Shown here piece after piece: positions 3,193-64,000 of a stretch of 64,000 bases of DNA; position 1 is the stretch's first letter; the number at the start of each line of letters is the position of its first letter. Location: assembly GCF_030384885.1 (NCBI RefSeq), contig NZ_CP128615.1; one strand, written 5' to 3'. The notes beneath the pieces were generated by a model, which ran no database searches, was not told the origin of the DNA, and saw nothing but the letters and a program-made list of their open reading frames with translations. Made by a program: the position numbers and the translations under genes. Origin of the DNA: Escherichia coli (GTDB lineage: Bacteria > Pseudomonadota > Gammaproteobacteria > Enterobacterales > Enterobacteriaceae).

Positions 3193-3292
3193 TGGATTTG
3201 CCCCTATATTTCCAGACACCTGTTATCACTTAATGGAGTGACCCCGAGCCCGTAGACAAATCTGCCCTATAGTTTGAGCATAGGAGGAGTCT

Positions 3293-3577: not shown

Positions 3578-3624
3578 AGTATCGCTTTATCAACGATCAC
3601 CGTGAAATCTGGTCGATCGTTACA

Positions 3625-5525: not shown

Positions 5526-5589
5526 GGGCAGTCAGTATGGCAGTGATGACTGGCAGCGGTTCTGCCGGGCCAATAATCTGGTACCGAGC

Positions 5590-5802
5590 ATGAGCCGTCG
5601 CGGCAACTGCTGGGATAATGCAGTGGCAGAATCGTTCTTCAGTTCACTCAAAAAAGAGCGCATCAGGAAGCGGATATACAAAACCCGGGACATGGCCCGG
5701 GCGGATATTTTCGATTATATTGAAGTGTTCTACAACCGGGCCCGGCGCCACAGTCATCTCGGCGGCGTCAGCCCGGAGGCCTTCGAAAAGGCCTCGCAGT
5801 GA
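5590..5802 (+). pseudogene. IS3-family transposase OrfB, 3' part (frame open from about 5527: GSQY...SMSRRGNCWDNAVAESFF)
   Basis: C-terminal DDE-region motifs of IS3 transposases resume immediately after the IS110 insert. Confidence 0.75.
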
Positions 5803-5909
5803 GGACAGAAACTGTCTACCGGAGCGTGGTCACTCCACATTTAAAGAAACGAGCTTTGGTAAACATACCTGTAATGACTCCATAAAATGGCGCGTCAAAC
5901 GACACCTAA

Positions 5910-7985: not shown

Positions 7986-8001
7986 GTTTCACCTCAGCGC
8001 C

Positions 8002-14342: not shown

Positions 14343-14357
14343 ATGATCTTGCGCCTC

Positions 14358-16121: not shown

Positions 16122-16137
16122 AGTTATCCGTTGCCTC

Positions 16138-19100
16138 TTACTTAATTCTTACTCGGTCGCCAGCTTTGACCGCAGCAATCAGCTGCTCTCTTAAAGCGGC
16201 AAGATAGGCATCAACTTCGGCTTCACTTTCAATGAATCCGGTTGTTACTGACTTAGCCATGGCATCGGTTGAGTTAATCGTTACGGTACGTTTTGCAACC
16301 GGCTGTGGCTGCACTGGTTCAGAGGCTGGCTCAGGTGCTGGAGCTGCTTTACCGGCTTTCGCTGCTTCCTCTTCGCGTGTCTGCTGTTCGAGTTCACGAC
16401 GTCTTTGCTCAGCTTCAGCTTTTTTGCGTTGATCTTCGATAAAGCCATTCAGCAACTCATAGGCTTCGTCCTCGTAACCTTCCGCTTCAGTTTGCTCACT
16501 GATAATTTGTGGTATTGAAGAGGTCGCTTCAATACGCTGTCTGCACATTTGTAACGGGCGCAGTGCTTGGTTCTGTAATTCAGACGGTGCATGAGCTTCA
16601 GCTAGCGCTTCTTTTACACGTCCGATGCGCAGATCAACACGCTCTAAGGCATGAGTGCGTTTTTCTTCAACCAATGTTGAGTTAATTTTTGCCACCTGCT
16701 CGATAAGCGGATTAATGTGGCGCAGCTGCTCATACGGCGAGGGCATATTGTAAATGCGTTCTAATTCAGTGAGCGCTTTTAATGCTTCACTGTCTTTTTC
16801 TAACGCAGGTCTATTGGCCTTAAACTTCTCGTTCAATGCGCCAGCAAGGGCTTGCCAAGTTTGAAATTGGCTATTGTAGAAGTCATCAAGATCCTCAAAG
16901 TCCTCAGCAAACTCTTCAAGGGCATCAGCGTTTTCTAAGAATCGGGTGATAAGAGCGAAGCTTGAAGTTTGCTCAAGAATACCCGCGACCAATGCAAGAC
17001 CATCGTCAATTTGAGATTTACCTGGGAAATGGCCTGTCTGTGACTTGGTTCTGAATGATTTAAGCTCTTCATTCCAAGCCAGTAATTCATCGCGCACTAA
17101 TTCGTAGAGCTCCTTTTCACCAGAGCCGGTAAAGGTTTTTGAAAAGATCTCTTTAACAAGACCAGCAGCCTTTTTGATTTGGCGCTCGTCATGTTGCCTG
17201 ATTTTATGTACACGGATCTCACCGCGTTTACGCACGCTGGTAAACGGCTCGTAAGCTTTTTTCAACGCCAGATCTGTGCCCTGGGTACTAAAAGATAACT
17301 TTCCAGCCAAGCCCAGCCTTGCAGTGAGCAATAAGATTTCATTGTCTGGCCAGCCATACGGGCGCTTGCCGAAGTGGGCAACGATGTCACGTAAGTAAAC
17401 AGGCTCATTACGCTCGACTTTTAGCGTTACGTACTGCTCAACCTCACGCGTAGCTTCTGGGTTACATTCATCCGCTTGAAGATCCAGTCCAATCTGAGCA
17501 ATATCATCAGCAACAAGTACGGCCTGTAGCTCACGCAAAACTTCACCAGGCGTCGCCTTGAGCATGTTCAATTTAGCGAAGGTGTTTTCGATAACGTATT
17601 TGTATGCTTCTTCGACGATGGCACTTGGCGTTGCTGATTTCTTCGGTAGTTTTGTGCCGATAGCGTAAACGTCAGCCTCTGCAAACAAAGCTTCAAAATC
17701 CGTTCTTAAGCGTTTTTCACGCTCAATATTTTCCATCTGCTTTTCGCGGAGAAGGTGTTCTTGCTCTGGTCGCTGTCCTGAATTTTGTTTTAAGAATCGG
17801 TCAGTTTTTATAAAGGTTGTCAGGTCATCCCAAAGACGTTTATGTTCGCCCAGCTTGACGAGCACGCACCCATCAGCCTCAAGCGTATGATTGATGCAGG
17901 CTTGATCGTGGGAGTAATTTTCAAAGTGCGAATCCAAAGGTGAAATGACTTTAATGACTAGATCTTCCAGCGTGGTGCCATCTTTTGGATGACCATTGCA
18001 AAAACGGCTCACCGCAAAGTCTTGCTTATTAATCGGGTATCGATAGGCACGATTACCTTTCAAAATACCGTCAAATACGATTGCTGAAAGCTTGTTAGAG
18101 ACCTCTGACATTTCAACGTCAGTGTGGCGGATCTCGTTTTCAATCTCTTTTTCTTCGTTGGTCAGGAAGATAAATTCATCACCATTACGCGCAATCAGCA
18201 ATTGGCGTTCAAGACGATTCAAGCTCTCTTCAATTTGTTTACGCAGCGCAATTTTATCTGCATCGATTCGATCAATTGACAGCGTCACAAGGTTGTCTAG
18301 TGTGCTTTTGACAACGTCCACATAACGGATCAAGAAAAGAGTTTTTAGAATCTTGCCATCGAATTCTGTTAAGGAATCCAACTCACAGGCTTGGTCAATC
18401 GTTCGCTTAACCGCTGGCTCCAAAAAGCTTTCAATCGGTGCATAGAAACTGTAAAACGGGATTAACACATCAAGGCCAGAGTCCTTCATCTGTTTTGCAG
18501 CTGATTGGAAAGCATCAAGTAATGAACGCTCACCCATGGCTAAGTGCTTACCCGTCGCGCCTTTTGTTCGAATTGACTCAAACACTTTTTGAACCAGCGT
18601 GTAGTGGTAAGGCACAAACGGATAGTTGTCCACGAAAGACGGAGCGTCGGTGTAGCCCTTTAGAGACGCAGTTGTCGTTTTATCAAATGTCAGCTGGTTA
18701 CGAAGAATGTCGCCCTTTTCAGCAAACACATCGATGAGGTGTGTACGAGCTTCTTCCGTTTTGGACAACAAACGCTTTTGAATAACTTCCGAGGTATTCG
18801 AGCTCGACAGCTGCAAGCGGGTACTAAAACGCCCTTGAATTTTAGAGAAGTCCTCGCCATCGCGCTTATCCATACCACCAATGGCAGCATCAATGTCTGC
18901 CTGAGAGGTAACAACGACCCAAGCTCTGCCACCACAATATGTGCCAAGATCTTCAGTAATGGTCTGAAGCTTCAACATCATTTGTGTGTTCTTACCGATA
19001 AACTGACCGACTTCATCGACTAAGAAAAGAAGGTTACGATCTCCAGTTCGATCTAAGTATTCATTAACCCACTTACAGAAGTTTCGGATATCTAGCGGGA

Positions 19101-19815
19101 AATTGTTTTCAACCTGTTCAACCCACGCTTTGGCAGACTCTAATGATTGCTCACTGGCATGAGCGAGTGCTTCTGAAAGTTCGTCTCGATAGAAGTCATA
19201 GGCGTCACGCTCCTTTTCCCAAGTTGATTGAGTCAACTCAGCAAATTTGTCCTTGAAAGACATGTATTGATTACGCTTATCAAGCTCGCGTTCTAAATGC
19301 GCAATGTGAGGAAAATCAGCGCAGTATCCTACACGCTCATTAAAGACTTTGAGGAAGACCTTAAGAATGGCATTTTCTCGGTCATCCGTATTGGCTCGTG
19401 AATCGATGTTAAAAAGAATAACATCAGTGTCTTTGGTAACAGCGTTTTGGATATCGGCCAACAGCATGGCATCGTTGATTTTGTCTTTAAAAAACTCAAA
19501 TGCTTGACGGCCTTGGCCATCCTTTTCGACAGACTTATTTTCGAGGAGGTAAGACAAAATTTTCAGGAAGTGAGACTTACCCGAACCAAAGAAGCCAGAG
19601 ATCCACACACCAATTTTTCCTGACATTGATGCGCCACTTTGCGTCACAGATGGAACGTAAGCCTCAAAGAAAGCGCGAAAATGTCGATCTAGCTCTCGGG
19701 TTACAACATACTCATCAAGTTCGACATACACACTGTCATTGTCTTTCTGTTCCGCTTTAACAACGCCGTTAATATCACGCGTCAACTTCTTGGAAAAAAT
19801 CTGTTCAATTTTCAT
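16138..19815 (-). CDS. brxC: BREX ATPase BrxC/PglY
   Basis: 1225 aa; Walker A GFFGSGKSHFLK near N-terminus; position after brxB. Confidence 0.85.
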   Translation of the reverse strand: MKIEQIFSKKLTRDINGVVKAEQKDNDSVYVELDEYVVTRELDRHFRAFFEAYVPSVTQSGASMSGKIGVWISGFFGSGKSHFLKILSYLLENKSVEKDGQGRQAFEFFKDKINDAMLLADIQNAVTKDTDVILFNIDSRANTDDRENAILKVFLKVFNERVGYCADFPHIAHLERELDKRNQYMSFKDKFAELTQSTWEKERDAYDFYRDELSEALAHASEQSLESAKAWVEQVENNFPLDIRNFCKWVNEYLDRTGDRNLLFLVDEVGQFIGKNTQMMLKLQTITEDLGTYCGGRAWVVVTSQADIDAAIGGMDKRDGEDFSKIQGRFSTRLQLSSSNTSEVIQKRLLSKTEEARTHLIDVFAEKGDILRNQLTFDKTTTASLKGYTDAPSFVDNYPFVPYHYTLVQKVFESIRTKGATGKHLAMGERSLLDAFQSAAKQMKDSGLDVLIPFYSFYAPIESFLEPAVKRTIDQACELDSLTEFDGKILKTLFLIRYVDVVKSTLDNLVTLSIDRIDADKIALRKQIEESLNRLERQLLIARNGDEFIFLTNEEKEIENEIRHTDVEMSEVSNKLSAIVFDGILKGNRAYRYPINKQDFAVSRFCNGHPKDGTTLEDLVIKVISPLDSHFENYSHDQACINHTLEADGCVLVKLGEHKRLWDDLTTFIKTDRFLKQNSGQRPEQEHLLREKQMENIEREKRLRTDFEALFAEADVYAIGTKLPKKSATPSAIVEEAYKYVIENTFAKLNMLKATPGEVLRELQAVLVADDIAQIGLDLQADECNPEATREVEQYVTLKVERNEPVYLRDIVAHFGKRPYGWPDNEILLLTARLGLAGKLSFSTQGTDLALKKAYEPFTSVRKRGEIRVHKIRQHDERQIKKAAGLVKEIFSKTFTGSGEKELYELVRDELLAWNEELKSFRTKSQTGHFPGKSQIDDGLALVAGILEQTSSFALITRFLENADALEEFAEDFEDLDDFYNSQFQTWQALAGALNEKFKANRPALEKDSEALKALTELERIYNMPSPYEQLRHINPLIEQVAKINSTLVEEKRTHALERVDLRIGRVKEALAEAHAPSELQNQALRPLQMCRQRIEATSSIPQIISEQTEAEGYEDEAYELLNGFIEDQRKKAEAEQRRRELEQQTREEEAAKAGKAAPAPEPASEPVQPQPVAKRTVTINSTDAMAKSVTTGFIESEAEVDAYLAALREQLIAAVKAGDRVRIK

Positions 19816-19833
19816 TCGGGAGGCTCCCTGCTC

Positions 19834-20427
19834 TTAATTTTTTTTACCGTCTTCAGGCACAAGCTTGAAGGCGCGATAGTAGTTTTTAGATTCGATCATG
19901 CCGAAAGGATGCAAATCCCTTCCGCTATATTCACCCGGATAGAAAAGCACTAATGGCGTGCTACCCATAACGTCTTGCAGAGCACTAAGTAACTCATGTC
20001 CTCGGATAAGAGGCCACGCACTGCCTAAGCCTGACAGCAACACAAACTCAAGTTCTGATGGCTTATATTTGTCCGCGATATACCTTGCCACTTTCTCTTG
20101 GCTCAGAGGCCCGGCTAGTGTTTTTCGAAGGCCATCAACACCGACTTGCAATTCACGCTGGCAAGCTCGGTCGAAAAGGCCTCGCTCCTCAAGCATATCT
20201 ATCAAGACTTCAAAAATATTGAGATGGACAAAGCGGTAACCACGCTTGTTGAGTTTTTCGTCAACGTGCTTAATGTGCTCTCGTACAAGCAGTTCATACT
20301 TGGCTGGATAGTCAAATACCCAAAATCCAATTTCATTGCCCAAGCCATCGTTTTTCAAAAACTTAGGGCTTTCAATTCGTTCCAGTATCAGATCAAGCCT
20401 GGTCTGAAGAGCCTTCATATTGTGCAC
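19834..20427 (-). CDS. brxB: BREX protein BrxB (DUF1788)
   Basis: 197 aa; overlaps brxA by 13 bp; size and position as in type 1 BREX. Confidence 0.8.
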   Translation of the reverse strand: MHNMKALQTRLDLILERIESPKFLKNDGLGNEIGFWVFDYPAKYELLVREHIKHVDEKLNKRGYRFVHLNIFEVLIDMLEERGLFDRACQRELQVGVDGLRKTLAGPLSQEKVARYIADKYKPSELEFVLLSGLGSAWPLIRGHELLSALQDVMGSTPLVLFYPGEYSGRDLHPFGMIESKNYYRAFKLVPEDGKKN

Positions 20428-21014
20428 TCCATTACCTCAATCAAATCTTCCCGGCCCAGACGAACTAACCAGTCTTTAACTTCTGGCATTAGGTAAACAG
20501 GTTGTATTTTCTTTGTCCTGCTATCACTCAGGTAGCCACTATCAACCAGTGCCTTAATTGCGTTGTTACCCATTTTTTTGACAGTTGAGTCAGAAAAACC
20601 GCCAAGCTCAGCATATGCCCGCACTCTCGTGTCATAAAACTCAGACCATGCATCAGCGGTTAAAGAGGGTTTATAGGTGCGACGAGCTTCGGCTAAGGTA
20701 AGTCGCATAAAATAAGCGACAACCGGAGAATGAATGAGTAATGACATCATCAGCATTTGGACATAGGCACGTTCACTCGCGGCTAAAAGATCAGTCATAA
20801 ACTCATCACCCAGGCCTTCAATACGCCAACGGATTGTTCTGGCATAACGAATAGCCGTCTGACCGGATTTTTTCTGAAGAACATTTTGCTCAACGATCAG
20901 CGACTTCCACTCATCTTCTGGAAGTTTTTTCAATAGCGATTCTGCGATTATTCTAGATTCAGTTATCAATAAACTGCCTCCGATAAGATCGCCTAAATAT
21001 TCTTTTATATTCAT
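20415..21014 (-). CDS. brxA: BREX protein BrxA (DUF1819)
   Basis: 199 aa; first structural gene of the BREX block. Confidence 0.8.
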   Translation of the reverse strand: MNIKEYLGDLIGGSLLITESRIIAESLLKKLPEDEWKSLIVEQNVLQKKSGQTAIRYARTIRWRIEGLGDEFMTDLLAASERAYVQMLMMSLLIHSPVVAYFMRLTLAEARRTYKPSLTADAWSEFYDTRVRAYAELGGFSDSTVKKMGNNAIKALVDSGYLSDSRTKKIQPVYLMPEVKDWLVRLGREDLIEVMECTI

Positions 21015-21023
21015 AAATTCATC

Positions 21024-21950
21024 TCACGATTCGCTATATCCAGGAGCGAGTGCAGCATTGTCAACGCCGTATAGTGCTTCTGGATTTTTAAGTGCTAAAT
21101 GGAACTCTCGCCCATTGCTCTTACAATTCTTTGAACAATCGATATTCCATAAACGCAGTAAATATCCAGCGAACGCAGCTCTTATCTCTACACGCAACCT
21201 ATTGTTTTCCATTGCGTAGTCCATCGATACAGCTTCTGGATGTGCTAGTTTTGGATGAGGTATCAGCTCTAGCTCAACGATTCGGTTCCATTGCTTATCC
21301 CACTGAAGAGTCTCAACTTCGTCGTTAACCTCATCCTCTAACAACTCAACTTCACTTATTCTGGTTAAAACAAAATCCCTAAATTCTCTAAGCTTTCTAT
21401 CGAATGCTCGGACATGCCATCTCAAGCCATTGTCAATCAGGGTATGAGGAACTATTTGCCTGCTCCCATGACCACTCGACAATGAGGTGTACTCAATATT
21501 AATCACAGCGCGCTTATGTATGGCTTCACTAATAGCCGCTACAACTTCCAATTTCGGCTTATTGAGATGGAATGGTGCTTCACAAGCCATAGGTGGCCTG
21601 GCCTTGCCAAGAAAGCCATCACCGAACCCTTGGCTTATCGTCGCAAGAGTTCGAACAACGTCATAATCAAACAACGGCTGGAATGCGCTCGTCTTCAAGT
21701 GCACTCTGCGCTTTTCGTCATACATAACGTTGTTAGGAGCCAACTCTTTGTACCGCGCAAAATCTTGTGTTGCCACAGACGGCGCTACGCTAAATCGCTC
21801 GGTTAAATAACTACGCCCAGCTTCACCTTTAAATAACAAAGTGAAATCAATATGAGCGAGTCGTTCTCTCTGTGCTTGGCTAAGCTCTTCAAGTCCAGTG
21901 TTGTCTTGCACTGTCAGCCTCTCAATCCATCTGGGACAAGCCCTAATCAT
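21024..21950 (-). CDS. brxR: WYL-domain transcriptional regulator BrxR (wHTH-WYL)
   Basis: 308 aa; N-terminal winged-HTH-like segment and WYL-like core (QIVPHTLIDNGLRWHVRAFD); directly upstream of brxA. True start may be an internal Met. Confidence 0.7.
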   Translation of the reverse strand: MIRACPRWIERLTVQDNTGLEELSQAQRERLAHIDFTLLFKGEAGRSYLTERFSVAPSVATQDFARYKELAPNNVMYDEKRRVHLKTSAFQPLFDYDVVRTLATISQGFGDGFLGKARPPMACEAPFHLNKPKLEVVAAISEAIHKRAVINIEYTSLSSGHGSRQIVPHTLIDNGLRWHVRAFDRKLREFRDFVLTRISEVELLEDEVNDEVETLQWDKQWNRIVELELIPHPKLAHPEAVSMDYAMENNRLRVEIRAAFAGYLLRLWNIDCSKNCKSNGREFHLALKNPEALYGVDNAALAPGYSES

Positions 21951-22269
21951 TTAAAACTAGGAAGCCATCGATTGAATGCCATCAAGCAACCTACTTTTTT
22001 TCATTAGGTATCATAGTATCAACAAGTCGTCTTGTTGGCTATAAAAATTGGCTTGACGTTGTTCGAATGTTTCTTTTCTGGCCTTGATAGAAGCTCACGC
22101 TGGAATGCCAACTGACGCAATTCATTCTCTCGAACACGCCTAGCAACTTCTGCCTGGGCTGGTAGCTGATCTTGACCCTCCATCTCCGAACAGCTTTTGT
22201 ATCTTAAGTTAACGATGTCCGCTGCCGCCGGTATTCCCTCGGGGAGTGATATCCCAGCGCGCTGTGCGG

Positions 22270-22545
22270 GTGGCTTCCATTTCCATCAGATGTCCTTCCT
22301 GCTCCGCTACTGAAGGCGTGGTGCGTAACGGCAAAAGCACTGCCGGACATCAGCGCTATCTCTGCTCTCACTGCCGTAAAACATGGCAACTACAGTTCAC
22401 TTACACCGCCTCTCAGCCCGGTACGCACCAGAAAATCATTGATATGGCCATGAATGGCGTTGGATGCCGGGCAACCGCCCGCATTATGGGCGTTGGCCTC
22501 AACACGATTTTACGTCACTTAAAAAACTCAGACCGCAGTCGGTAA
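22270..22545 (+). CDS. insA: IS1 InsA
   Basis: [43 protein letters not shown]...; track ORF 22246 start extends beyond the IS1 fragment and is not used. Confidence 0.85.
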
Positions 22546-22967
22546 CCTCACGCATACAACCGGGCAGTGACGTCATTGTTTGCGCGGAAATGGACGAACA
22601 GTGGGGTTATGTCGGCGCTAAATCACGCCAGCGCTGGTTGTTTTACGCGTATGACAGGATACGGAGGACGGTTGTGGCGCACGTATTCGGTGAACGCACG
22701 TTGTCCACGCTGGAGCGTCTTCTGGGCCTGCTGTCGGCCTTTGAGGTCGTGGTATGGATGACGGATGGCTGGCCGCTTTATGAATCACGCCTGAAGGGAG
22801 AACTGCACGTTATCAGCAAGCGATATAAGCAGCGCATTGAGCGGCATAACCTGAATCTGAGGCAGCATCTGTCAAGGCTGGGCAGGAAGTCACTGTCGTT
22901 CTCAAAATCGGTGGCGCTGCATGACAAAGTCATCGGGCATTATCTGAACATAAAACACTATCAGTAA
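22464..22967 (+). CDS. insB: IS1 InsB (expressed as InsAB' by frameshifting)
   Basis: 167 aa [27 protein letters not shown]... Confidence 0.85.
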
Positions 22968-23174
22968 GTTGGAGTCATTACCTTCTTTGCCGCCGGACAT
23001 TGTCCGGCGCAACACCAAACCGGTCTGGCGGGCTGAGCCAATCCCGCAGGCAAATTCAGCCCTTACCGGATGGCTCAGCCCCCTACTCATTGGAATTGGA
23101 TATTCAACTTTCAGGGGCTACTGCGCCAGACTTCAGTCTTTAAAGTGATTGACTTAGCGCCTGGCACACTCAAT

Positions 23175-23486
23175 TTATTTAGGTAGCGGGCCTAATTGCA
23201 CCCCATCAGGATAATACTTCCAGCCATCGCGAATTTTGACATTTTCATCCCACGGAAGTTTGTATTCGCCATTGGCAAGATCGCGCACCCAGGTCAGGTA
23301 ATTCTCGCGTTCGCCTCCCGGTTTGCCGACATAGCCCCGGCAGCCAAGGTTGAAAATATTGTTTTCCAACGCCCAGTTTTCACGCGCTTTATCCACCAGG
23401 CGCGGGAACAGCTCTGCGGTAACAATTTCCCATGGGTTGCGGTGCCCCTGCTGAATGACGTTACCGTCATAATTGCAGACCGTACC
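23175..23486 (-). pseudogene. C-terminal fragment of an unidentified gene, truncated by IS903
   Basis: Open frame runs from the IS903 boundary (23486) to stop at 23175; no N-terminus. Confidence 0.3.
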
Positions 23487-24543
23487 GGCTTTGTTGAATA
23501 AATCGAACTTTTGCTGAGTTGAAGGATCAGATCACGCATCCTCCCGACAACACAGACCATTCCGTGGCAAAGCAAAAGTTCAGAATCACCAACTGGTCCA
23601 CCTACAACAAAGCTCTCATCAACCGTGGCTCCCTCACTTTCTGGCTGGATGATGGGGCGATTCAGGCCTGGTATGAGTCGGCAACGCCTTCATCACGGGG
23701 AAGGCCCCAGCGCTATTCTGACCTTGCCATCACGACTGTGCTGGTCATTAAACGCGTATTCAGGCTGACCCTGCGCGCTGCGCAGGGCTTTATTGATTCC
23801 ATTTTTACACTGATGAATGTTCCGTTGCGCTGCCCGGATTACAGCTGTGTCAGCAGGCGGGCAAAGTCGGTTAACGTCAGTTTCAAAACGTTCACCCGGG
23901 GTGAAATCGCGCATCTGGTGATTGATTCCACCGGGCTGAAGGTCTTTGGTGAAGGCGAGTGGAAAGTCAAAAAGCATGGCCAGGAACGCCGTCGTATATG
24001 GCGAAAGTTGCATCTGGCAGTTGACAGCAACACACATGAAATCATCTGTGCAGACCTGTCGCTGAACAATGTGACGGACTCAGAAGCCTTCCCGGGTCTT
24101 ATCCGGCAGACTCACAGAAAAATCAGGGCAGCATCGGCAGACGGCGCTTACGACACCCGGCTCTGTCACGATGAACTGCGGCGTAAGAAAATCAGCGCGC
24201 TTATCCCTCCCCGAAAAGGTGCGGGTTACTGGCCCGGTGAATATGCAGACCGTAACCGTGCAGTGGCTAATCAGCGAATGACCGGGAGTAATGCGCGGTG
24301 GAAATGGACAACAGATTACAACCGTCGCTCGATAGCGGAAACGGCGATGTACCGGGTAAAACAGCTGTTCGGGGGTTCACTGACGCTGCGTGACTACGAT
24401 GGTCAGGTTGCGGAGGCTATGGCCCTGGTACGAGCGCTGAACAAAATGACGAAAGCAGGTATGCCTGAAAGCGTGCGTATTGCCTGAAAACACAACCCGC
24501 TACGGGGGAGACTTACCCGAAATCTGATTTATTCAACAAAGCC
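23487..24543 (+). mobile_element. IS903 (IS5 family), intact 1057-bp copy, no target-site duplication
   Basis: Terminal inverted repeats GGCTTTGTTGAATAAATC at both ends; flanking 9-mers differ (gaccgtacc vs agatggaat). Confidence 0.9.
23519..24487 (+). CDS. IS903 transposase
   Basis: 322 aa [45 protein letters not shown]... Confidence 0.9.
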
Positions 24544-24625
24544 AGATGGAATAGCCCCGCTCGGTGATTTGGCGGACAGCTTCTTCCTTAAATTCAGGGG
24601 TAAAACGTGGTGTGCCCATAGACTA
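24544..24625 (-). mobile_element. 82-bp remnant of an IS3-family element (orfA start region)
   Basis: Minus strand encodes MGTPRFTPEFKEEAVRQITERGYSI, near-identical to the orfA start at 3293; cut on both sides by IS903 and the IS407-like element. Confidence 0.5.
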
Positions 24626-25208
24626 TGACCTGCTCCCCGTTGATTAGTACACCCCGATGTTAGTAATGTCTTCATAAGCCACATGAGGACATCCCCATGA
24701 AGAAGCGTTTTTCCGACGAACAGATCATCAGTATTCTCCGCGAAGCCGAAGCTGGGGTACCCGCCCGTGAACTCTGCCGCAAGCATGCCATTTCCGATGC
24801 CACGTTTTACACCTGGCGTAAGAAGTATGGCGGTATGGAGGTGCCTGAAGTTAAGCGCCTGAAGTCGCTTGAGGAAGAGAACGCCAGACTCAAGAAGCTG
24901 CTTGCCGAAGCCATGCTGGATAAAGAGGCGCTTCAGGTGGCTCTTGGGCGAAAGTACTGACGACAGACCAGAAGCGGGAAGCCGTGATGCTGATGTGTGA
25001 TGCGACCGGTCTGTCGCAACGTCGTGCCTGCAGGCTTACAGGTTTGTCCCTGTCGACCTGCCGCTATGAGGCTCACCGTCCGGCTGCTGATGCGCATTTA
25101 TCAGGGCGCATCACTGAGCTGGCACTGGAGCGCAGGCGTTTTGGCTACCGTCGTATTTGGCAATTGCTGCGCCGTGAAGGGCTTCATGTTAATCATAAGC
25201 GCGTGTAG
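24626..25208 (+). mobile_element. IS3-family (IS407-group-like) element, 3'-truncated within orfB
   Basis: Begins TGACCTGCTCCCCGTTGATTAGTACACCCCGATG; orfA 24697-24960 and first 74 codons of orfB (24984-25208) only. Confidence 0.6.
24697..24960 (+). CDS. IS3-family (IS407-group) transposase OrfA
   Basis: MKKRFSDEQIISILREAEAGVPARELCRKHAISDATFYTWRKKYGG... Confidence 0.8.
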   Translation: MKKRFSDEQIISILREAEAGVPARELCRKHAISDATFYTWRKKYGGMEVPEVKRLKSLEEENARLKKLLAEAMLDKEALQVALGRKY

Positions 25209-45181: not shown

Positions 45182-45673
45182 GTCTGTGTTGTAAAATGGC
45201 GCCGAAAGCCCGGCGTAGCCGGTTGCCGGGCTATAAATTCTGCCACCCTACCCCCTGCCCTGATTAGCCTTAACTCGCGAACAGCAATGAAGAAGTCAAA
45301 GTAATCCCTTTTAACCCCGGTGAGCGGGCTTTACGGCGTTTACGACGTAAAGGGCGTGATTTCCGGGGCCTAAGCGGCGGCAGCTTGCTGCTGACGCTTA
45401 GGGGGATGTTCATCAACTATTTCAGCGACACCAGGGAACTTAACACGGTAGCTGCAAAGCCCTAATCCCGCTCACCGCCACGCAGCTGCCGTACGTCCCC
45501 CACGGGGGTGCGCAGTGCTGCGCGCGGGAACGGCGGCCCGTCTGCGGGACGCGGCGCCGTACTGCGCGTTAGCGGCCGCACGCGGCCGGTTACGGGGGAC
45601 ACTCCGCCATACGACCAGCGACCCGCTGAGCTGCACAATCCACAGATAACACAAGCTACATACATGTCGATAT

Positions 45674-46245
45674 GGGAATCGGCCCACCTTGCCGGGCGCC
45701 GGTGCCGTGTGGAAATCCGCCCACCTTGCCGCGCGCCGGTGCCGTGTGGGAATCCGCCCACCTTGCCGCGCGCCGGTGCCGTGTGGGAATCCGCCCACCT
45801 TGCCGGGCGCCGGTGCTGTGTGGAAATCCGCCCACCTTACCGGGCGCCGGTGCTGTGTGGAAATCCGCCCATCTTGCCGGGCGCCGGTGCCGTGTGGGAA
45901 TCCGCCCACCTTACCGGGCGCCGGTGCCGTGTGGGAATCCGCCCACCTTACCGGGCGCCGGTGCCGTGTGGGAATCCGCCCACCTTACCGGGCGCCGGTG
46001 CTGTGTGGAAATCCGCCCACCTTGCCGCGCGCCGGTGCCGTGTGGGAATCCGCCCACCTTGCCGCGCGCCGGTGCCGTGTGGGAATCCGCCCACCTTGCC
46101 GGGCGCCGGTGCTGTGTGGAAATCCGCCCACCTTACCGGGCGCCGGTGCTGTGTGGAAATCCGCCCATCTTGCCGGGCGCCGGTGCCGTGTGGGAATCCG
46201 CCCACCTTACCGGGCGCCGGTGCTGTGTGGAAATCCGCCCATCTT
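45674..46245. repeat. Tandem array of about 15.5 copies of a 37-bp repeat (GAATCCGCCCACCTTGCCGCGCGCCGGTGCCGTGTGG with point variants)
   Basis: Contiguous head-to-tail repeats without spacers; downstream of a truncated repA paralog, i.e. in the position of an incC/incA-type iteron array. Confidence 0.85.
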
Positions 46246-53707: not shown

Positions 53708-54125
53708 CTGTGGGAAACAGGTCAACTTTAATGGACGCTCCGGACTATGGGAAACAGGTCAACTTCGCGGACGGCCCGGACTATGGGAAACAGGTCAACT
53801 TCACGGGCGGCCGGGAGTGTGGGGAACAGGTCAACTTCGCGGACGGCCCGGATTATGGGAAACAGGTCAACTTCGCGGGCGGCCGGGACTGTGGGAAACA
53901 GGTCAACTTTGCAGACGGCCCGGACTGTGGGAAACAGGTCAACTTCGCGGGCGGCCGGGAGTGTGGGGAACAGGTCAACTTCGCGGACGGCCCGGACTAA
54001 GGGAAACAGGTCAGCTTCTCGGACGGCCCGGACTATGGGAAACAGGTCAACTTCTCGGACGGTCGGGAGTGTGGGAAACAGGTCAAGTTAGGCAAGCACT
54101 ATGGGAAACACAGCAAGTTCAGTAT
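53708..54125. repeat. Array of about 11 direct 36-bp repeats (TGGGAAACAGGTCAACTT core); iteron/copy-control locus downstream of repA
   Basis: Regular 36-bp period read directly; located between repA stop and parA start. Confidence 0.85.
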
Positions 54126-54176: not shown

Positions 54177-55043
54177 CTATTGTTTTTTATCAAGAAAATT
54201 AAACAGCAAGCGACCATCTTCTTCAGTGGTATATGTTACCTTTAATGGCGTCTTCTCATTAATTTTCTTCAGAGCAGGTTCCAGGAAGGTACGCTTCATT
54301 TCAGCAATATTGTTTTTCTGCGAGGCAGGGAGCATAAACCTTTCACATAACCAGTCATGTGTGGTGATCCAGACACCAGTGCTCCGGAACTGACACAGGC
54401 TTTCATAAAGCCGGATGACACGAACACTATTAAGCTGGCCACAGTCATAGAGAGAATAGGTAGTGAACTGGGAGGTTAAGCCGACCAGGAATGGCATGAC
54501 CTTGTAGTTAAATTCAATCTGCCAGGAACCCCGGCCTCGCTTCATTCCTGCTTCAGCCAGCCACGGACGTTTAACTTCTTCAAACTCACCTTCTTTTGGA
54601 TAAAAGGTAACCGTTGATTCGCCCAGAGCATTTACCCCAGCCTTCACATCACGACTGGCGACAGACGTAGCGACATTGAAGTATTTGACGTAATCGGAAA
54701 CGCTGATTTTGAAGAGCGGCAATACGTCAGAGTCATCTTCCTGGCTGTCATTAAAATAGGCCTGCATGAGGCATAACCACAGCACACGTTTTGCCTGAAG
54801 AGGCAGGTAATATGCAGCTTCGGTCAATTCGTTAGATTGCTTTATACTGGCGCGTTTTTTAAACGTTTTAGTAGCTGGCAAGAGTGCTTGAGTATCCATT
54901 TCAATGCCTATGGGTAAATTTTTACCCACCCATAATGACAGTGAAAACAGAAATTGCAAGCTATCGCGATACTTATCCACCGGAAAAATCTGCACTTTAT
55001 CCACAAGTGGATAATTGAGAACTGAACTTGACCTCTTTCCCAT
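54177..55043 (-). CDS. repA: Rep_3-family replication initiator RepA (RepE of F-like)
   Basis: 288 aa; ...IKQSNELTEAAYYLPLQAKRVLWLCL...VIRLYESLCQFR... parallels F RepE. Confidence 0.85.
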   Translation of the reverse strand: MGKRSSSVLNYPLVDKVQIFPVDKYRDSLQFLFSLSLWVGKNLPIGIEMDTQALLPATKTFKKRASIKQSNELTEAAYYLPLQAKRVLWLCLMQAYFNDSQEDDSDVLPLFKISVSDYVKYFNVATSVASRDVKAGVNALGESTVTFYPKEGEFEEVKRPWLAEAGMKRGRGSWQIEFNYKVMPFLVGLTSQFTTYSLYDCGQLNSVRVIRLYESLCQFRSTGVWITTHDWLCERFMLPASQKNNIAEMKRTFLEPALKKINEKTPLKVTYTTEEDGRLLFNFLDKKQ

Positions 55044-56120: not shown

Positions 56121-56899
56121 TTAAATATTCCCTTTCAGCATGGCTACCGCATCCGCTTCGGGCATCTGAAACTGAACTCGATGCCGCGCAGCAACATCAA
56201 GTGCGAACACCTTCGTATAGACTTCCGTCGAGCTAATCGATTTGTGGCCCATCAGGCTCTGCAAAACCTTCAGTGGTATGCCGGCATACAGCACATATGC
56301 ATCGCGTAGGAGTGGCGGAACGTATGCGGGGTGACCGGCACCGAGAATGTCACCCCGTCGACGGCGGCCGCTTCAACCGCTTCGCCAATCCAGGTCCGTA
56401 CTGTCCGGTCGGTGATGTCCCAGATGCGGGCTTTCTCTGTTCTGCCGGTACGCTTGTTGCGTCTTTCCAGCGGAATTTTCAGGGTGGCCACCATCATCTG
56501 CAGCTGGCTGACGTAGTGGTGATCGGAAAGCGGAACCAGACGATGAGCCTGGCTACCGGCGGGAGCTCGGCCGGCTGTCCTGGCCGCTTTTTCGGTGCGC
56601 TGCTTAAGCGTGGCCAGCTGCACGAACGGATACGGTGGCACCAGCGAAAAATCCCCCCGGGTCAGCGCCAGCGCCTCGTTGATACGTGCGCCGGTGTTCC
56701 AGAGGGTTGCCAGCAGCATCTTGCGGTGCAAATCGGGCACATAATGGAGCAGGGCGCTGACTTCCGGTGCCAGCAGGTATTTCGGTAGTTCATCTTGAAC
56801 GAGCGCCATCTGGCGCAGGGCCAGCGCGGCGGGATAGTCAATGGCCACCGGCATTTGCGCCGGCTGCTGCGGGTGAGAATATGATAAGAGGCCGCTCAT
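56121..56899 (-). pseudogene. Tyrosine site-specific recombinase (ResD/XerD-like resolvase), frameshifted
   Basis: N-terminal 209 codons (track 56270-56899) end at ...TFRHSYAMHM; the conserved C-terminus ...LYAGIPLKVLQSLMGHKSISSTEVYTKV... continues in another frame (2-bp shift near 56285). Confidence 0.7.
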
Positions 56900-57639
56900 T
56901 GGTTTGACATTCCATCAGGTATCACTAATTGATTCCACTCCCTGTTGCGGGTAGCTTCAGCAGCGCGCAGGGCTCTTTCGCGCCTCCAGACTTTACGAAA
57001 CACGGAAACTGCAGACCATTCATCATGACCTGTAAGACGTGTTTCGGGCATCCCGGTTGCCTTGCGCAGACGGACGGCAAGAATGACAGCGTTGATGCCC
57101 AAGCGCGTGAACTGATACTGCCGTTCCCTGAAATAGTCCTTATGCCAAGGAGGGTCGGAGTATTCGGCGGCATATGCAATTGCCCTGTGGGCCTCATCCT
57201 GGAGCACCGGCAGTTCACGGATGCGATACATAAGACGTGGCTCTAAAGTCCGCCAGTCACCGGAGACATCGATCAGATTCAGTTCAGGGTAATTCGTGAC
57301 AGCTTTTCTCTCAGGCTGGGGGGCATCATCATCCTGGCCGTCATCCGTCACAACCCGGAAACAACCCTCAGCATACCGTTCAAGCATGAATACCAACTCG
57401 GTGGCAATGTAATGCAGTTCCTTTTTCATTTTATCTTCTGACGCCTGTCTCTCACGCTTAAGCGTGAAATAATGTGTCAGCCAGATGCCAGTGAGTGTTA
57501 TACCCCCAGTAAGCAGGCCAGTGATAAGCCCGGTTGCCACGTTTCCCCAGATCCCCGCCCCTTGATTAATCAGCTGTACGGAAACCGGATGGGATGTCGC
57601 AGCAACTATACTCTCAGTTGCGGCCTGTATATCAGTCAT
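56896..57639 (-). CDS. Hypothetical membrane protein (247 aa)
   Basis: Predicted TM segment GIWGNVATGLITGLLTGGITLTGIWL; start overlaps the recombinase gene. Confidence 0.4.
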   Translation of the reverse strand: MTDIQAATESIVAATSHPVSVQLINQGAGIWGNVATGLITGLLTGGITLTGIWLTHYFTLKRERQASEDKMKKELHYIATELVFMLERYAEGCFRVVTDDGQDDDAPQPERKAVTNYPELNLIDVSGDWRTLEPRLMYRIRELPVLQDEAHRAIAYAAEYSDPPWHKDYFRERQYQFTRLGINAVILAVRLRKATGMPETRLTGHDEWSAVSVFRKVWRRERALRAAEATRNREWNQLVIPDGMSNQ

Positions 57640-58040: not shown

Positions 58041-58610
58041 GTCCTTTCCTCAGTTGAATAGTTAGCCGTGCAATTTTACCACACCTCAATCATCGTCAGA
58101 TGAGTGCCACTCTGTCGCGACAGTGACTTTCACGAGAGTGATTTTCACATACTAAAATAATAAGCAGCCATATAACAACGTAATTAAATTACCTGACGGC
58201 CGCTCTGGCCGGATCCGACTTTTATGTTATTCCACAGTTTCCGGAAGTGTACCACGCACACGGAATAACCACAGCGCCCTTTCAGGGTGGTGAGCGGCCG
58301 GTCACGGGGCAGGGGAGGGGCACAACATATATGGTCACTGACAGCTGGAAACACCGCTACATCTTGTGTTTCCGGGCCGCTGCGCGCCGGCGGGGCTGAA
58401 TCAGATCCGGAACTGGTGGTTTTCGGATCTGCGGTGGAGAAATGAGAAAACAGGATATGCGCAGCATATCCACATGCCACGCATCTGCATAGGGCAGACA
58501 TACGCATATGTCAGTCATCTGCATATGTTACACCTATACAGACCAGTCCGGCAGGCATATACTGCACATATGTACTCACACATCATGCATGATCAGCCGG
58601 AGGAACATCC

Positions 58611-58841
58611 ATGCGCACAGTTTCGATATTTAAAAACGGCAATAACCGCGCCATCCGTCTGCCCCGGGACCTGGATTTTGACGGCGTCAGCGAGCTGGAG
58701 ATCGTCCGGGAAGGGGACAGCATCATTCTGCGTCCCGTCCGGCCGACCTGGGGCTCGTTCGCGCAGCTGGACAGGGCCGATCCGGACTTTATGGCGGAGC
58801 GTGAGGATGTGGTCAGCGATGAAGGACGCTTTGAGCCATGA
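58611..58841 (+). CDS. vapB: VapB/VagC antitoxin, second copy
   Basis: Protein identical to the copy at 2446; promoter region related but diverged. Confidence 0.9.
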   Translation: MRTVSIFKNGNNRAIRLPRDLDFDGVSELEIVREGDSIILRPVRPTWGSFAQLDRADPDFMAEREDVVSDEGRFEP

Positions 58842-58931
58842 AGAAAACCTGGATGCTCGACACTAACATCTGCTCGTTCATCATGCGCGAGCAGCCGGCA
58901 GCGGTGCTGAAGCGCCTGGAGCAGGCGGTGC

Positions 58932-58932
<1 letters not shown>
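58838..58932 (+). pseudogene. vapC: vapC, truncated after about 31 codons by an IS21-family element
   Basis: MKKTWMLDTNICSFIMREQPAAVLKRLEQAVL then IS terminal sequence TGTCAACGCCACGATG. Confidence 0.85.
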
Positions 58933-60440
<1,508 letters not shown>

Positions 60441-60604
60441 AAAACTGTCAGCGCTGCGAGGACGAAGAAAGTATTACGGCTAAAGCCGTAATACCTCCCC
60501 ATCCAGCTTCAAGCTATGTAGAAACTTATGTGGGTAGAGCAGTCCCGACAGGGCAGTACCGCATTGACAGGCCGTCAGGGCCACTTACGAGCTTGTATGA
60601 CAAG

Positions 60605-60642
60605 GGGGGCCGTCTGGATATAGCGAATTATTGTACGGTAAG
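60605..60642. repeat. Tn3-family 38-bp inverted-repeat-like sequence
   Basis: GGGGGCCGTCTGGATATAGCGAATTATTGTACGGTAAG, 30 of 38 matches to the IR at 34373 and in the same orientation. Confidence 0.45.
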
Positions 60643-61764
60643 CCTTTTTTGAACAGCCTTACCTATTGCTATAGAGGGGAACTCCTACGTTATACGCCGC
60701 TTTCAGGGGATTCGACCTTAATGAGACAACTCAAATATGATCGACAACTTAAACGCGATAGTTGCTGATAAAATCAATCCATTACGCGTTTCAATTGATT
60801 AAATAATGCACTTAATGTACAAAAATTCCCGATCTCAAAACTGAACCCTAAAGATACCAGGCATCTCCCCCAGGAAGCGCCCTCATGCGTTTTCCTGTTC
60901 CGCCCCTGCCACCTACCTTCTGTTTCATACTTGTTGTATTATTGTTTTTGTTTTCAATCCCCAAGGAGACGTCGCTATATGACTGTGCGGGAGACAGAGG
61001 AAAACATTGAACAAATCTTCCCTGAGCTTTCGAACTTAATTGATATTATTAATAAATGGCTTTCCCATGGAAACATTGATCCTGAACTGGCACACTTCAT
61101 CATTTATCTTCTTGATTACCTAACCACCACACACAAAAGCATATAAAAATTTTCCTTGCACATCCATTTTTTTGCGAATATTATTATTCCTGCTGAATAT
61201 GATTCAATATCGCACGCTACTCATCCATCCCAGGATAATGAGTACATAGGTTGAAGTTTCAACACCCCCATTACGGGGGTGTTTTTTTTACCAATAAACA
61301 CAAATCACACCATCGCCATACTCTGTTTGCCAGACATCGATTGGTAAATATGCGTAACTCGCTATAATACAAAAAGAAAAATCAGAACCAGAAACCAGTT
61401 TCCAGATAAAAAACACCCTCCCGAAGGAGGGGACAGACACATTCATATTTCCCAAAACAGGAATTTTTATTTTTATGACGCATTAATGAAGTTACTTCAT
61501 CTCCAGTAGATTAACTTCATTTAAAGTGGCGATCAATCATATTTATTACGACTCTAAACTATTACAACAACCACAATAAGATATCACCTCAAATATAAAA
61601 GATAACTCTTACAAAAACGTTCCGAAAACAAAAAATACAGATAAACACCAATAAAAAACAGAAAACTCTTACACATTTAAAGATGGTAAAATAATATAGA
61701 ACTGTTAGTCTAATGGAGAAGGCGCATCTGATTCAGAGCAATCTATTGCGAAGAATCAGAGTAA

Positions 61765-61806
61765 CAGGGCCCCATGATATAATCATGGGGCCCTGTTGCT
61801 TTTACA
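61765..61806 (+). terminator. Strong intrinsic terminator-like hairpin
   Basis: 14-bp perfect stem CAGGGCCCCATGAT/ATCATGGGGCCCTG with 3-nt loop followed by TTGCTTTT. Confidence 0.45.
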
Positions 61807-62184
61807 GATGTAAAAACGACCAATCATTTAACATCTGTTATCGGCACCGCCCCGGACGGGTTCGGCGCAAATATGGTATGGTACCAGCCCGGCAATTCAC
61901 CTGCCGTGCAATCTGACGAAGCAGTACCGGCGTATGCAGATATATCGTCCAGACATATCTGCCGCATTCAGGCGGTGAGTAAAGCCTTCTCTCTCAAAAG
62001 AGGAGCAACAGTTATCCACAGATTCTGGGGATAACTGCGAAAAGAATATGTGCCAGGAAAGTCGGCTCCCGGGAAAAAGACCGCTGGCGGCGCAGCTGCT
62101 GGATACGAAAGCTGAGCTGAAAGGATCCCGGGAGGACGTCCGTAAACTTCAGTCCCTGGCCCGTCATGACGGGAAGGTGAAAAA

Positions 62185-62826
62185 GTGAATGCGGATACCT
62201 GGACCCGCCTGCAGGCCTTCCGACATGCTCTGGAGCTGACTTCCTGTGAGGCTTCTCTCACCGCCGGGTATGATCACCTGAAGGATTTCCCGGCCGGTTG
62301 CAGCGAGCTGGCCAGCCAGACGCTGACTGATTATCTGACGGAAGACGGCAGCAACCTGTACTCCTGTATTGTCGGTATGCAGTGGGATAATGGTCCTGGC
62401 AGATACGGCCACGTCATTGCCGCCCCTGCCAGGGACTATATCGACCTGACCCTTGATCAGTTTCCAGGCTATCATAACCGGATTGTGGCAGAGCCCGTTG
62501 AGTCCGGCGGACAGCTCGCGGCAGACCTCAACAGGGAGCCTGCCATCAGTACAGCTGATGGAATAGTGGCCAGCGCATCAGATAAGGTTAATTACATTAC
62601 TGAACAGAAAAATCGCCAGCCAATGGTGATCATTACAGAATGTTACAAGCTGATCAGAATAACGGCAAGATTTATACCAATGTGCCAGTCATCTCAACTC
62701 TTCCAGCACCAGGTATTCCCTCGCTTATTTATCATTTCAGACGTTGGCTCCTGCAGTTTGTCCAGGAACACCTTAGATCGTTTAGCTACTGACTGGAAGG
62801 TGACACTGTCCATCCTGTCGCTATAG
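62185..62826 (+). CDS. Hypothetical protein (GTG start), translationally coupled to a 46-codon upstream ORF (62049-62189)
   Basis: GTGA start/stop overlap; no recognised motifs; 3' part overlaps a convergent ORF so extent is uncertain. Confidence 0.3.
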   Translation: MNADTWTRLQAFRHALELTSCEASLTAGYDHLKDFPAGCSELASQTLTDYLTEDGSNLYSCIVGMQWDNGPGRYGHVIAAPARDYIDLTLDQFPGYHNRIVAEPVESGGQLAADLNREPAISTADGIVASASDKVNYITEQKNRQPMVIITECYKLIRITARFIPMCQSSQLFQHQVFPRLFIISDVGSCSLSRNTLDRLATDWKVTLSILSL

Positions 62827-64000
62827 GGCTTGATATAAACCTGGCAGGCAAGGGATCTGGTTAACTCCTTTCCTTCCATAAAGTGTTTGAAGATCCAGAG
62901 ATACGTATCCACAAGCTCCAGCCCTGTACTCTGTGTCCCCGACTGGAAGACCTGCGGTTCAGCTGGTATTTCCGTTACATCCATGACCGGTGTCTGCGCA
63001 GCAGTGCCTGTCATCAGGATCCTGTCACTCTTTCGACCGACAGCTTATGGCATACAGTTGGGCTCGTAAGATCCAGAGTCAATAACTGACAGGGTTTATT
63101 CTGTCATCCTCCGGCAACAAAGGCATATACGATATTCACTTATTTTGTCGGCCCAACGGCTTTTTACAGTAGCTCGTTTTGCCCAACTGATGCTACAGCT
63201 CTTTGGTTTGCTTCATCACGGATATCAGCTCCGACACAGGCACAGCTGACTGGTTGCAACGTCTGCACTTCTCTGGACCTGAAACGTCAATTATCAGGAT
63301 TCTGACGATTAGTCTTAAGACTGTCGGTAAATTAAGTGATGCCAGTTGTCAGGATATTCATGGAGCCAGTCTGCATGCGCCTCTGGCGTTGAGACAAACA
63401 TATGAAGTGTATTTCGGATATGACTGTACGCTCAGGAAGTACGGCAGATTCCGTCAAAAATTACCTGTAAAGACAGACTTCAGAAAAAACAGTGCTCGCC
63501 GCAGACCGGTGACCGGGCGAAGCCCGCGAACCGGCGAGGAAGCGCAATATATCTGTAGTTACAGTGAGCAGGTACGCCCTGAAGCCTTCATAATCGGTAG
63601 TGTATGCTGTTTTTCCGGAATGATTTATCCACATATCCAGAGGCCCGATCCAGTAAATAGATCCATGAATGATCAATAAAGGATCCATTAAAGATCCCCA
63701 TATCGCTACAAACCTTGTTACTCATGGGCCGGGACCACGATCACATAAGCTGTGGCATGTTACTGATAAACTGTAATATGCTAATGATAAGCTGTATTCA
63801 GTAATGCATATACTGAAGTAAGCTAATGACATAAACTATGGTCAGTACGCCAGACTCTGTTGTTAAATACAGACTGCAGGTTTTTCTTCAGTCAGTTAGC
63901 GGGGCTCTGACACACGATTTGCTGTTTATTCTTTTACTGTCCACAGGCAGGAGGCTTTCTGGAAAACGAAAATTCAGACATCAAAAAACTGTTCGGCGAG

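Follow-up and report, generated by a model that had tools for sequence, protein, structure and literature searches.

Two vapB loci 56 kb apart as probable scars of an IncF and IncR plasmid fusion at rfsF in an Escherichia coli plasmid sequence

The stretch of Escherichia coli DNA analysed here (64,000 nucleotides; hereafter, the window) carries two vapB antitoxin genes, only one of which is followed by an intact vapC toxin gene. The window is very probably part of a cointegrate between an IncF and an IncR plasmid, generated by a reciprocal exchange within the spacers of their rfsF sites, most likely through the tyrosine recombinase ResD, with the orphan vapB having come from the IncF partner. 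Judged from their sequence contexts, the two vapB loci appear to be the resident loci of the IncF and IncR plasmids and not a duplicated module on one replicon; their 56-kb separation would stem from the fusion, at rfsF, of two plasmids that had one copy apiece. The proposed course of events is as follows: (i) the IncF partner, similar to p14EC033d, would have carried gajA-gajB, rfsF, a promoter allele termed P2, vapB, a vapC cut after codon 32, and RepFIB; (ii) the cut in that lineage would have been made by an IS21 end, after which the IS21 would have decayed and lost its transposase end, leaving vapB orphaned with an intact promoter; (iii) the IncR partner, similar to NZ_CP024857.1, would have carried resD, two hypothetical genes, rfsF, a promoter allele termed P1, and an intact vapBC (vagCD); and (iv) the two circles would have recombined reciprocally inside the spacers of their 28-bp rfsF sites, which would insert the whole 56-kb IncR plasmid and leave each of the two junctions with a directly oriented vapB locus.

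The genes at the two loci are:
2446-2676, plus strand: vapB-1 (vagC), antitoxin gene of the IncR plasmid
2673-3089, plus strand: vapC-1 (vagD), intact PIN toxin gene of the IncR plasmid, 138 aa
58611-58841, plus strand: vapB-2, orphan antitoxin gene, intact, 76 aa, product identical to VapB-1
58838-58933, plus strand: vapC', the first 32 codons only; the open reading frame (ORF) continues into IS21 and stops at 58981

A 42-nt probe taken from the vapB start had exactly two sites in the window, where none would be expected by chance, and a repeat finder returned the two loci as a 99% direct repeat with a spacing of 56,165 bp. Their coding stretch is 99.4% identical over 330 bp. The two vapB genes differ by a single synonymous substitution (GAC versus GAT) and both translate to the same 76-aa protein, in agreement with an earlier note on this DNA, which had claimed identical antitoxins at both loci. 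An ATGA overlap joins vapB to the next ORF in each case (in the second copy, the vapC start lies at 58838). The same note had described the first 32 VapC codons as identical, the second vapC as cut by an IS21-family element, and the second vapB as an orphan, and all three descriptions hold: the 32 codons of the two vapC genes match exactly at the protein level up to 58933, with one synonymous base difference, and then diverge; the reading frame of the second runs into the IS21 terminal repeat to give a 47-aa ORF (32 vapC codons plus 15 IS-derived codons); and vapB-2 is intact while vapC-2 is reduced to those 32 codons. A correction concerns the end coordinate, as codon 32 ends at 58933 and the 58932 given previously is one base short. 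Position 58932 is both the last-but-one base of codon 32 and the first base of IS21, and the TG at 58932-58933, being common to the codon and to the IS21 terminus, is assignable to either. The 3' part of the second vapC was absent from the window by both blastn and tblastn.

Family assignments agree with these gene identities. VapB passes NCBIfam NF040493 (92.5 bits; cut-off, 60) and Pfam PF04014 (MazE_antitoxin; 36.6 bits; cut-off, 24.7), and VapC-1 passes the Pfam PIN model PF01850 (55 bits; cut-off, 23.6). VapC-1 also aligned end to end with the solved VapC structures 9H6A and 3TND, with its acidic PIN residues D8, E46, D103, and E124 aligning with those of both. The vapC' fragment retains only D8 (one of the four acidic residues), and its 47-aa product has no Pfam match and does not amount to a complete PIN domain. 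Against the NCBIfam cut-offs for the tRNA(fMet)-specific endonuclease VapC subfamily, VapC-1 falls short (NF010285, 110 versus 143 bits; NF047863, 120 versus 140 bits). Within VapBC, the window genes fall in the plasmid vagCD branch: they are the same genes as the vagCD of IncR and IncF/Klebsiella plasmids, the VapB is identical to WP_001261276.1, which is annotated in IncR and IncFIB plasmids, and the order is likewise antitoxin first, ATGA overlap, and then PIN toxin, beside rfsF-resD. The window differs from that system in having a second copy without toxin after codon 32 and in having two promoter alleles (P1 and P2) upstream of almost identical coding sequences. The VapBC systems of Salmonella LT2 and Shigella pMYSH6000, which feature a tRNA-fMet endonuclease, the operators vapO1/vapO2, and conditional cooperativity, share with the window an AbrB/SpoVT-type antitoxin and a PIN toxin with conserved acidic residues; however, the sequence relation to both systems is only distant (window VapB versus 3TND_B, E = 4e-4), and because of this distance an assignment of the window genes to Shigella pINV MvpAT/VapBC was rejected.

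The homology between the two vapB loci starts ~180 bp 5' of each ATG, at a palindrome, GATCCG-N14-CGGATC. A reading of this palindrome as a terminator or RNA hairpin was rejected because no T-run follows it, it matches rfsF, and its right arm is conserved beyond what pairing would need. The rfsF sites of the window and of the two parental plasmid types are:
2235-2262: recombinant rfsF site 1, GGATCCGGTT-TTGCCTTT-TTTCGGATCT
58403-58430: recombinant rfsF site 2, AGATCCGGAA-CTGGTGGT-TTTCGGATCT
IncF parent: rfsF site, GGATCCGGTT-TTGGTGGT-TTTCGGATCT
IncR parent: rfsF site, AGATCCGGAA-CTGCCTTT-TTTCGGATCT

Their identification as rfsF is based on a published 28-bp pattern and on position in the F plasmid. 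In experiments by Xu et al. (2021), fusion and resolution of a Klebsiella virulence plasmid with an F derivative took place at 28-bp sites, which those authors equated with rfsF; each follows AGATCCGNAANNNNNNNNTTNCGGATCT, in which two 10-bp inverted arms flank a variable 8-bp spacer, and the junction falls in that spacer (PMC8299605). Site 2 matches AGATCCGNAANNNNNNNNTTNCGGATCT with no mismatch and site 1 with three, all confined to the left arm, which derives from the IncF parent; the chance expectation is 0.02. In the F plasmid (NC_002483.1), positions 45921-45948 read AGATCCGAAAACCCCAAGTTACGGATCT, the reverse complement of which is identical to site 2 at 25 of 28 bases, and the RepFIA region with rfsF sites is reported to begin at that position (PMC4398462).

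To each side of a TG shared by the spacers, 500 nt were compared with both parents. At the copy 1 junction, the left 500 nt are 100% identical to the IncF parent (p14EC033d-like) and the right 500 nt are 100% identical to the IncR parent (NZ_CP024857-like); at the copy 2 junction, the left 500 nt are 100% identical to the IncR parent and the right 500 nt to the IncF parent, while the wrong parent pairings gave 34% and 88%. The sites themselves are hybrids of the same kind, site 1 having the left arm and first spacer base of the IncF parent and the remainder of the IncR parent, and site 2 having the left arm and first spacer base of the IncR parent and the remainder of the IncF parent. The parental switch thus maps to the shared TG in the spacer, reciprocally and at the same position at both junctions. 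This arrangement resembles the rfsF/ResD system of F and the sites of Xu et al. in the 28-bp length, the 10-bp inverted arms, the 8-bp spacer with the exchange inside it, the ResD homologue (92%) nearby, and the whole plasmid lying between two directly oriented sites. It differs from them in its partners, which are E. coli IncFIB/FIC-type and IncR plasmids, and in having one degenerate left arm, largely different spacers, and a frameshifted resD nearby. The IncF and IncR spacers share three of their eight bases. Spacer mismatch normally hampers exchange by tyrosine recombinases. With both parental and both recombinant sites known at base resolution, the window offers a natural example for the permissiveness of ResD/rfsF recombination toward largely different spacers and one degenerate arm.

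Between the two exchange points lies a complete IncR plasmid, with the following features adjoining site 2:
2248-58415: complete IncR plasmid, opened at the rfsF spacer, colinear with NZ_CP024857.1
56121-56899, minus strand: resD of the IncR plasmid, tyrosine recombinase gene, frameshifted; 209-aa ORF at 56270-56899
56896-57639, minus strand: hypothetical gene between resD and rfsF, 247 aa
57690-58040, minus strand: hypothetical gene between resD and rfsF, 116 aa

The segment contains vagCD, IS903/ISEc15 debris, BREX type 1, resistance and IS regions, umuDC, parAB, repB with 10.4 copies of 36-bp iterons, resD, and the two hypothetical genes, neither of which has a Pfam match. On the circle of NZ_CP024857.1, the counterparts of the segment's left and right ends adjoin each other, with the pair of hypothetical genes immediately 5' of vapBC. 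The content agrees with that published for IncR backbones, in which vagCD adjoins rfsF-resD and foreign DNA is frequent just downstream of rfsF (PMC9412624). The reference IncR ResD protein is 92% identical to the ResD of the F plasmid, and ResD most likely catalysed the fusion. The resD of the window is frameshifted by an inserted TG (2 bp), so that its product lacks the catalytic His and Tyr; therefore, the recombinase would have acted before this mutation or been supplied in trans. The insertion is absent from all eight full-length matches listed, of 2,804 plasmids with the segment (98.5% identity), and it may either have frozen the cointegrate or be a sequencing error. The IncF plasmid has a more distant ResD relative (47%) just past the window.

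The junction position also bears on two other ways in which such a structure could come about. RecA-dependent homologous recombination could have taken place within the ~530 bp shared by the two plasmids, followed by migration of the Holliday junction to the edge of homology, where it would mimic an rfsF junction. The shared 330-bp stretch, at 99.4% identity, is a good RecA substrate, and rfsF marks the left limit of the shared region (promoter, vapB, and vapC 5' end). In addition, one plasmid (L008) changes promoter type just past the TTTTCGGATCTG block and not in the spacer; therefore, exchanges near rfsF do not all occur at one point. Nevertheless, the crossover in the window lies ~200 bp outside the near-identical stretch, past DNA that is ~71% identical, and falls in a 2-bp identity in the spacer of what is already known as a site for site-specific recombination; the position of the switch is the same at the two reciprocal junctions, and fusion in the spacer of such sites has been demonstrated experimentally (PMC8299605). 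Site-specific recombination better explains an exchange ~200 bp off the stretch favoured by RecA, and a RecA-dependent origin appears improbable.

An assembly duplication artefact had been raised in the earlier note as something that would undo its reading, and it would mean that a shared repeat had led to a false join between two co-resident plasmids, or that a segment had been falsely duplicated. Both parental plasmid types do occur separately in databases, and the cointegrate orders GajB-rfsF-P1-vapBC and hyp116-rfsF-P2-vapB-vapC'::IS21 were found neither in PLSDB nor among 5,426 complete E. coli genomes. However, assemblers join at identical sequence, so that the switch in a mis-join should fall within the near-identical 330-bp stretch; the actual switch is in the rfsF spacer, 180 bp outside that stretch, where the parents share only 7-bp plus 2-bp identity, and it is reciprocal at both junctions. 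In addition, two base differences and distinct promoters set the copies apart. We consider that an artefact of either kind hardly merits credence.

Upstream of the two vapB genes, the fused plasmids each retain a promoter/operator allele of their own, with these predicted elements:
2263-2445, plus strand: P1 promoter/operator allele, IncR lineage; -35 at 2367-2372, -10 at 2390-2395
2318-2338, 2352-2372, and 2386-2406: P1 inverted repeats, TGCATA-N9-TAYRCA
58431-58610, plus strand: P2 promoter/operator allele, IncF/Klebsiella lineage; -35 at 58535-58540, -10 at 58558-58563
58486-58506, 58520-58540, and a weaker one at 58554-58574: P2 inverted repeats
58599-58603: P2 predicted ribosome-binding site, GGAGG

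The two regions are homologous from 2236 and 58404 onward, and from the recombination site to the ATG their identity is ~71%, in keeping with their previous description as related but different. A promoter scan found an identical TATACA-17-TATACT pair at 2367-2395 and 58535-58563. In both copies, the inverted repeats have a 34-nt period, with the second (TGCATA-N9-TATACA) lying across the -35 and the third (GGCATA-N9-TATGYR) across the -10, and GCATA is 15-20 times enriched in the upstream regions relative to the whole window. In an alignment of 16 regions upstream of vapB, taken from plasmids and 68-99% identical to P2, little or no variation was seen in the -35, the -10, the rfsF right arm, and a CATCTRCATAT block (R being G in 15 of the 16), and the three TGCATA-N9-TAYRCA repeats are conserved across these diverged sequences. 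The predicted layout is that of an autoregulated type II toxin-antitoxin operon of the enteric vapBC kind, with the antitoxin first, a gene overlap, and operator-like repeats over the -10 and -35. In Salmonella, the two vapBC operators (vapO1/vapO2) lie over the -10 and -35, and VapB alone binds them weakly, with VapC strengthening the binding (PMC3378870). The overlap with -10 and -35 is alike in the window, although there are three repeats here and two there. The term "diverged promoter" used in the earlier note is therefore only partly apt: the divergence is real, but it is that of another lineage's allele in which identical hexamers, the ribosome-binding site, and the operator-like repeats have been kept. 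P2 appears to be the IncF/Klebsiella-lineage allele of the same promoter with all recognizable elements intact, and it is predicted to be active and to be repressed by VapB or VapBC from either locus.

The element that ends the second vapC is:
58932-60429, minus strand: IS21 remnant (terminal repeat, istB, and the 3' 654 nt of istA)

This remnant is 98% identical to the intact IS21 of pEco15-1, with the match starting exactly at the terminal TGTCAACGCC, and covers 1,498 of the 2,131 bp of IS21 (~1.5 kb). The terminal repeat and the istA-istB pair at high identity place it in IS21, although it is not a complete element: istB has lost 13 bp and contains an in-frame stop, and istA is cut at 60429, with the transposase N-terminus and the other IS end missing. 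With istB disrupted, istA without its N-terminus, and only one IS end left, the remnant cannot move. The intact IS21 of pEco15-1 shows a 4-bp target duplication (ATTG), whereas the window copy, lacking a second end, has no duplication that can be checked. The break in vapC is at a true IS21 terminus, and either a simple insertion or an IS21-mediated deletion may have produced it; the two are indistinguishable because an ancestral full insertion with the other half of vapC was not found, a query of the reciprocal junction (IS21 left end, GTGC, and vapC 3' part) having no covering record in PLSDB. An IS21 remnant with all the same decay mutations, but with a different left flank, is present in pECC-1470_100.

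Outside the two rfsF sites, the window consists of IncF backbone:
22-1149, plus strand: gajA', Gabija OLD-family ATPase/nuclease gene; 5' end beyond the window start
1134-2156, plus strand: gajB, UvrD-like helicase gene (Pfam UvrD-helicase; PADLOC GajB, 161 bits)
60430-64000: IncF backbone toward the RepFIB initiator gene, 99.9% identical to p14EC033d

The gajA' product matches Pfam OLD-like TOPRIM and AAA_15, the gene is 100% identical to p14EC033d, and the full-length gajA there scores 338 bits as PADLOC GajA; the RepFIB initiator gene starts one base past the window end. In p14EC033d, gajA-gajB precede the orphan vapB, whereas in the window the same genes precede the intact copy. The PGAP annotation of p14EC033d lists vapB, a VapC pseudogene ("missing C-terminus"), istB ("frameshifted; internal stop"), and istA ("missing N-terminus"). 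This plasmid fits equally as the IncF parent or as a product of resolution by ResD; its derivation as a deletion product of homologous recombination within the 330-bp repeat was rejected, since it carries P2 and a hybrid rfsF.

At least 10 PLSDB plasmids, with E. coli and Shigella dysenteriae as hosts, contain the vapC'::IS21 junction (window 58700-61200) at full length and 99.7-100% identity, as do 6 of the 5,426 complete E. coli genomes, in every case without the IncR insert. Because the same junction exists in IncF plasmids that lack the insert, and the decay mutations of the remnant are shared with pECC-1470_100, the toxin gene vapC-2 was destroyed before the plasmids fused, and its loss was therefore not decay permitted by copy 1. 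The earlier proposal that the second locus reflects decay of a redundant module fails in this respect. These IncF carrier plasmids also have a third, intact vapBC allele 3.3 kb upstream, and redundancy with that allele may have played a part in the loss of vapC-2. An undamaged counterpart of the locus (hyp-hyp-P2-vapB-whole vapC) is present at 98.7% identity in many Klebsiella plasmids.

An orphan antitoxin by itself is routine, and the junction is already annotated as pseudogenes in public records; nothing about IS21, rfsF/ResD fusion, or orphan antitoxins as such is new. Of more use is the origin of the two copies, namely the probable capture of a whole IncR plasmid by a conjugative IncF plasmid at rfsF, and what is new is this IncF::IncR cointegrate together with a base-level view of a natural rfsF exchange between different spacers. 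IncR plasmids carry resistance genes and have no self-transfer. Because they cannot transfer themselves, an IncF::IncR fusion would be one route by which they become mobile. More generally, where toxin-antitoxin loci on a large plasmid look "duplicated", they may be scars of fusion and not duplications.

Regarding function, VapB-2 is expected to bind VapC-1, because it is identical to VapB-1, and should likewise bind both operators. The ratio of antitoxin to toxin would then rise, and given the identity of the two proteins the orphan could plausibly buffer VapC. Orphan antitoxins are abundant, and the anti-addiction idea is a standard but rarely tested one (PMC7192599). The window resembles such cases in that an antitoxin gene remains intact next to a disrupted toxin gene while the same toxin is encoded elsewhere, and differs in that orphan and toxin are now on one molecule and would be lost together unless the cointegrate resolves. 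After resolution, or with separate plasmids, the IncF orphan could neutralise the VapC that remains after loss of the IncR plasmid.

The orphan might thus have been kept because it is useful, either as a VapC buffer or as an anti-addiction gene after loss of a vagCD-bearing IncR or Klebsiella virulence plasmid. Consistent with this, VapB-2 is identical to the VapB of IncR plasmids, its predicted promoter, ribosome-binding site, and operator-like repeats are intact, the orphan is unchanged in at least 10 plasmids, and orphan antitoxins are common, with an anti-addiction role being an established hypothesis (PMC7192599). However, the carriers are almost identical, too alike to carry a trace of selection, and may share this state through recent common descent. 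Moreover, loss of a toxin gene is always tolerated, and a leftover antitoxin is the expected neutral outcome. Neutral persistence is accordingly the default, and we regard retention for usefulness as a tentative and rather unlikely reading.

A further, decidedly speculative idea is that rfsF and the vapBC promoter form a linked unit, that a toxin-less vapB disarms the addiction module of a partner plasmid, and that the resD frameshift and the mismatched spacers lock the cointegrate. If this were true, each ResD-mediated fusion would set the addiction module of the partner beside the resident one, and an IncF plasmid could capture, and later shed, IncR or Klebsiella virulence plasmids with the same VapB while the host is not killed. 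A query consisting of rfsF, the promoter, and the vapB 5' end was at least 80% covered in at least 4,137 plasmids.

A comparison of the two vapBC loci gives ~71% identity for the promoters of their lineages (2236-2445 versus 58404-58610), whereas the coding sequences are 99.4% identical (2446-2768 versus 58611-58933), and the shift from promoter-level to coding-level identity falls within ~10 nt of the ATG. Because synonymous sites are expected to diverge as non-coding DNA does, this contrast, as read from the sequences, implies that a second, older recombination breakpoint would lie near the start codon. The vapBC upstream region, with its rfsF (the replicon fusion site), stands back to back with ccdAB in many plasmids, as in the comparison loci L006, L007, L010, L011, L012 and L015, and the layout recalls the order rfsF-oriV1-ccdAB-resD of the F plasmid. 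Toxin-antitoxin promoters in general seem to be travelling companions of rfsF.

The resD gene of the IncR segment (56121-56899, minus strand) is frameshifted by a 2-bp insertion (TG), with loss of the catalytic His and Tyr. This insertion, which could be either a sequencing error or a change that locked the cointegrate, is absent from all the top-ranked full-length matches (98.5% identity) among 2,804 plasmids with the segment.

On the IncF side, the IS21 remnant ends at a truncation point at 60429. The same decayed remnant (58932-60429), with the same mutations, occurs in pECC-1470_100 and seven similar plasmids (comparison locus L002, 5800-6001). The left flank there is unlike that of the window and consists of a 160-bp IS3-family fragment, followed by a further IS21 end in inverted orientation; the flank has been exchanged at an IS end that is immobile. 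Beyond the truncated istA, 60430-62184 is AT-rich, lacks any ORF of appreciable size and is left unannotated in related records; it is followed by a hypothetical gene:
62185-62826, hypothetical gene of 213 aa with no Pfam match.

Directly upstream of the first rfsF, the IncF backbone carries a defence pair, of which the 5' part of gajA is missing at the window start:
22-2156, gajA-gajB, Gabija (also L001, 1050-4336).
Just upstream of gajA, p14EC033d has a third, intact vapBC allele (~86% nucleotide identity), whose position projected onto the window would be 0.5-1.1 kb left of its start. An OLD-family ATPase gene likewise follows vapBC in the Klebsiella plasmids L009 and L010.

Downstream of vapC-1 lies IS debris (3125-5900) that agrees with the 'locus A' described for IncR plasmids:
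3125-3192, IS903/IS102-like end of 68 bp, repeated at 23487, 43041 and 45120.
After this end, within 3125-5900, an ISEc15 (IS3 family) copy split by another element.
4431-5507, transposase-like ORF of 358 aa in the splitting element.

The remainder of the IncR segment includes a BREX region 100% identical to that of NZ_CP024857.1 and two tandem arrays, of which the 36-bp array beside repB agrees with published IncR iterons:
~5900-25200, complete type 1 BREX system (brxL, pglZ, pglX, brxC and others).
5910-7985, minus strand, brxL of this system.
45673-46245, tandem array, 15.5 copies of a 37-bp unit.
53711-54086, tandem array, 10.4 copies of a 36-bp unit, adjoining repB.
54177-55043, minus strand, repB of IncR.
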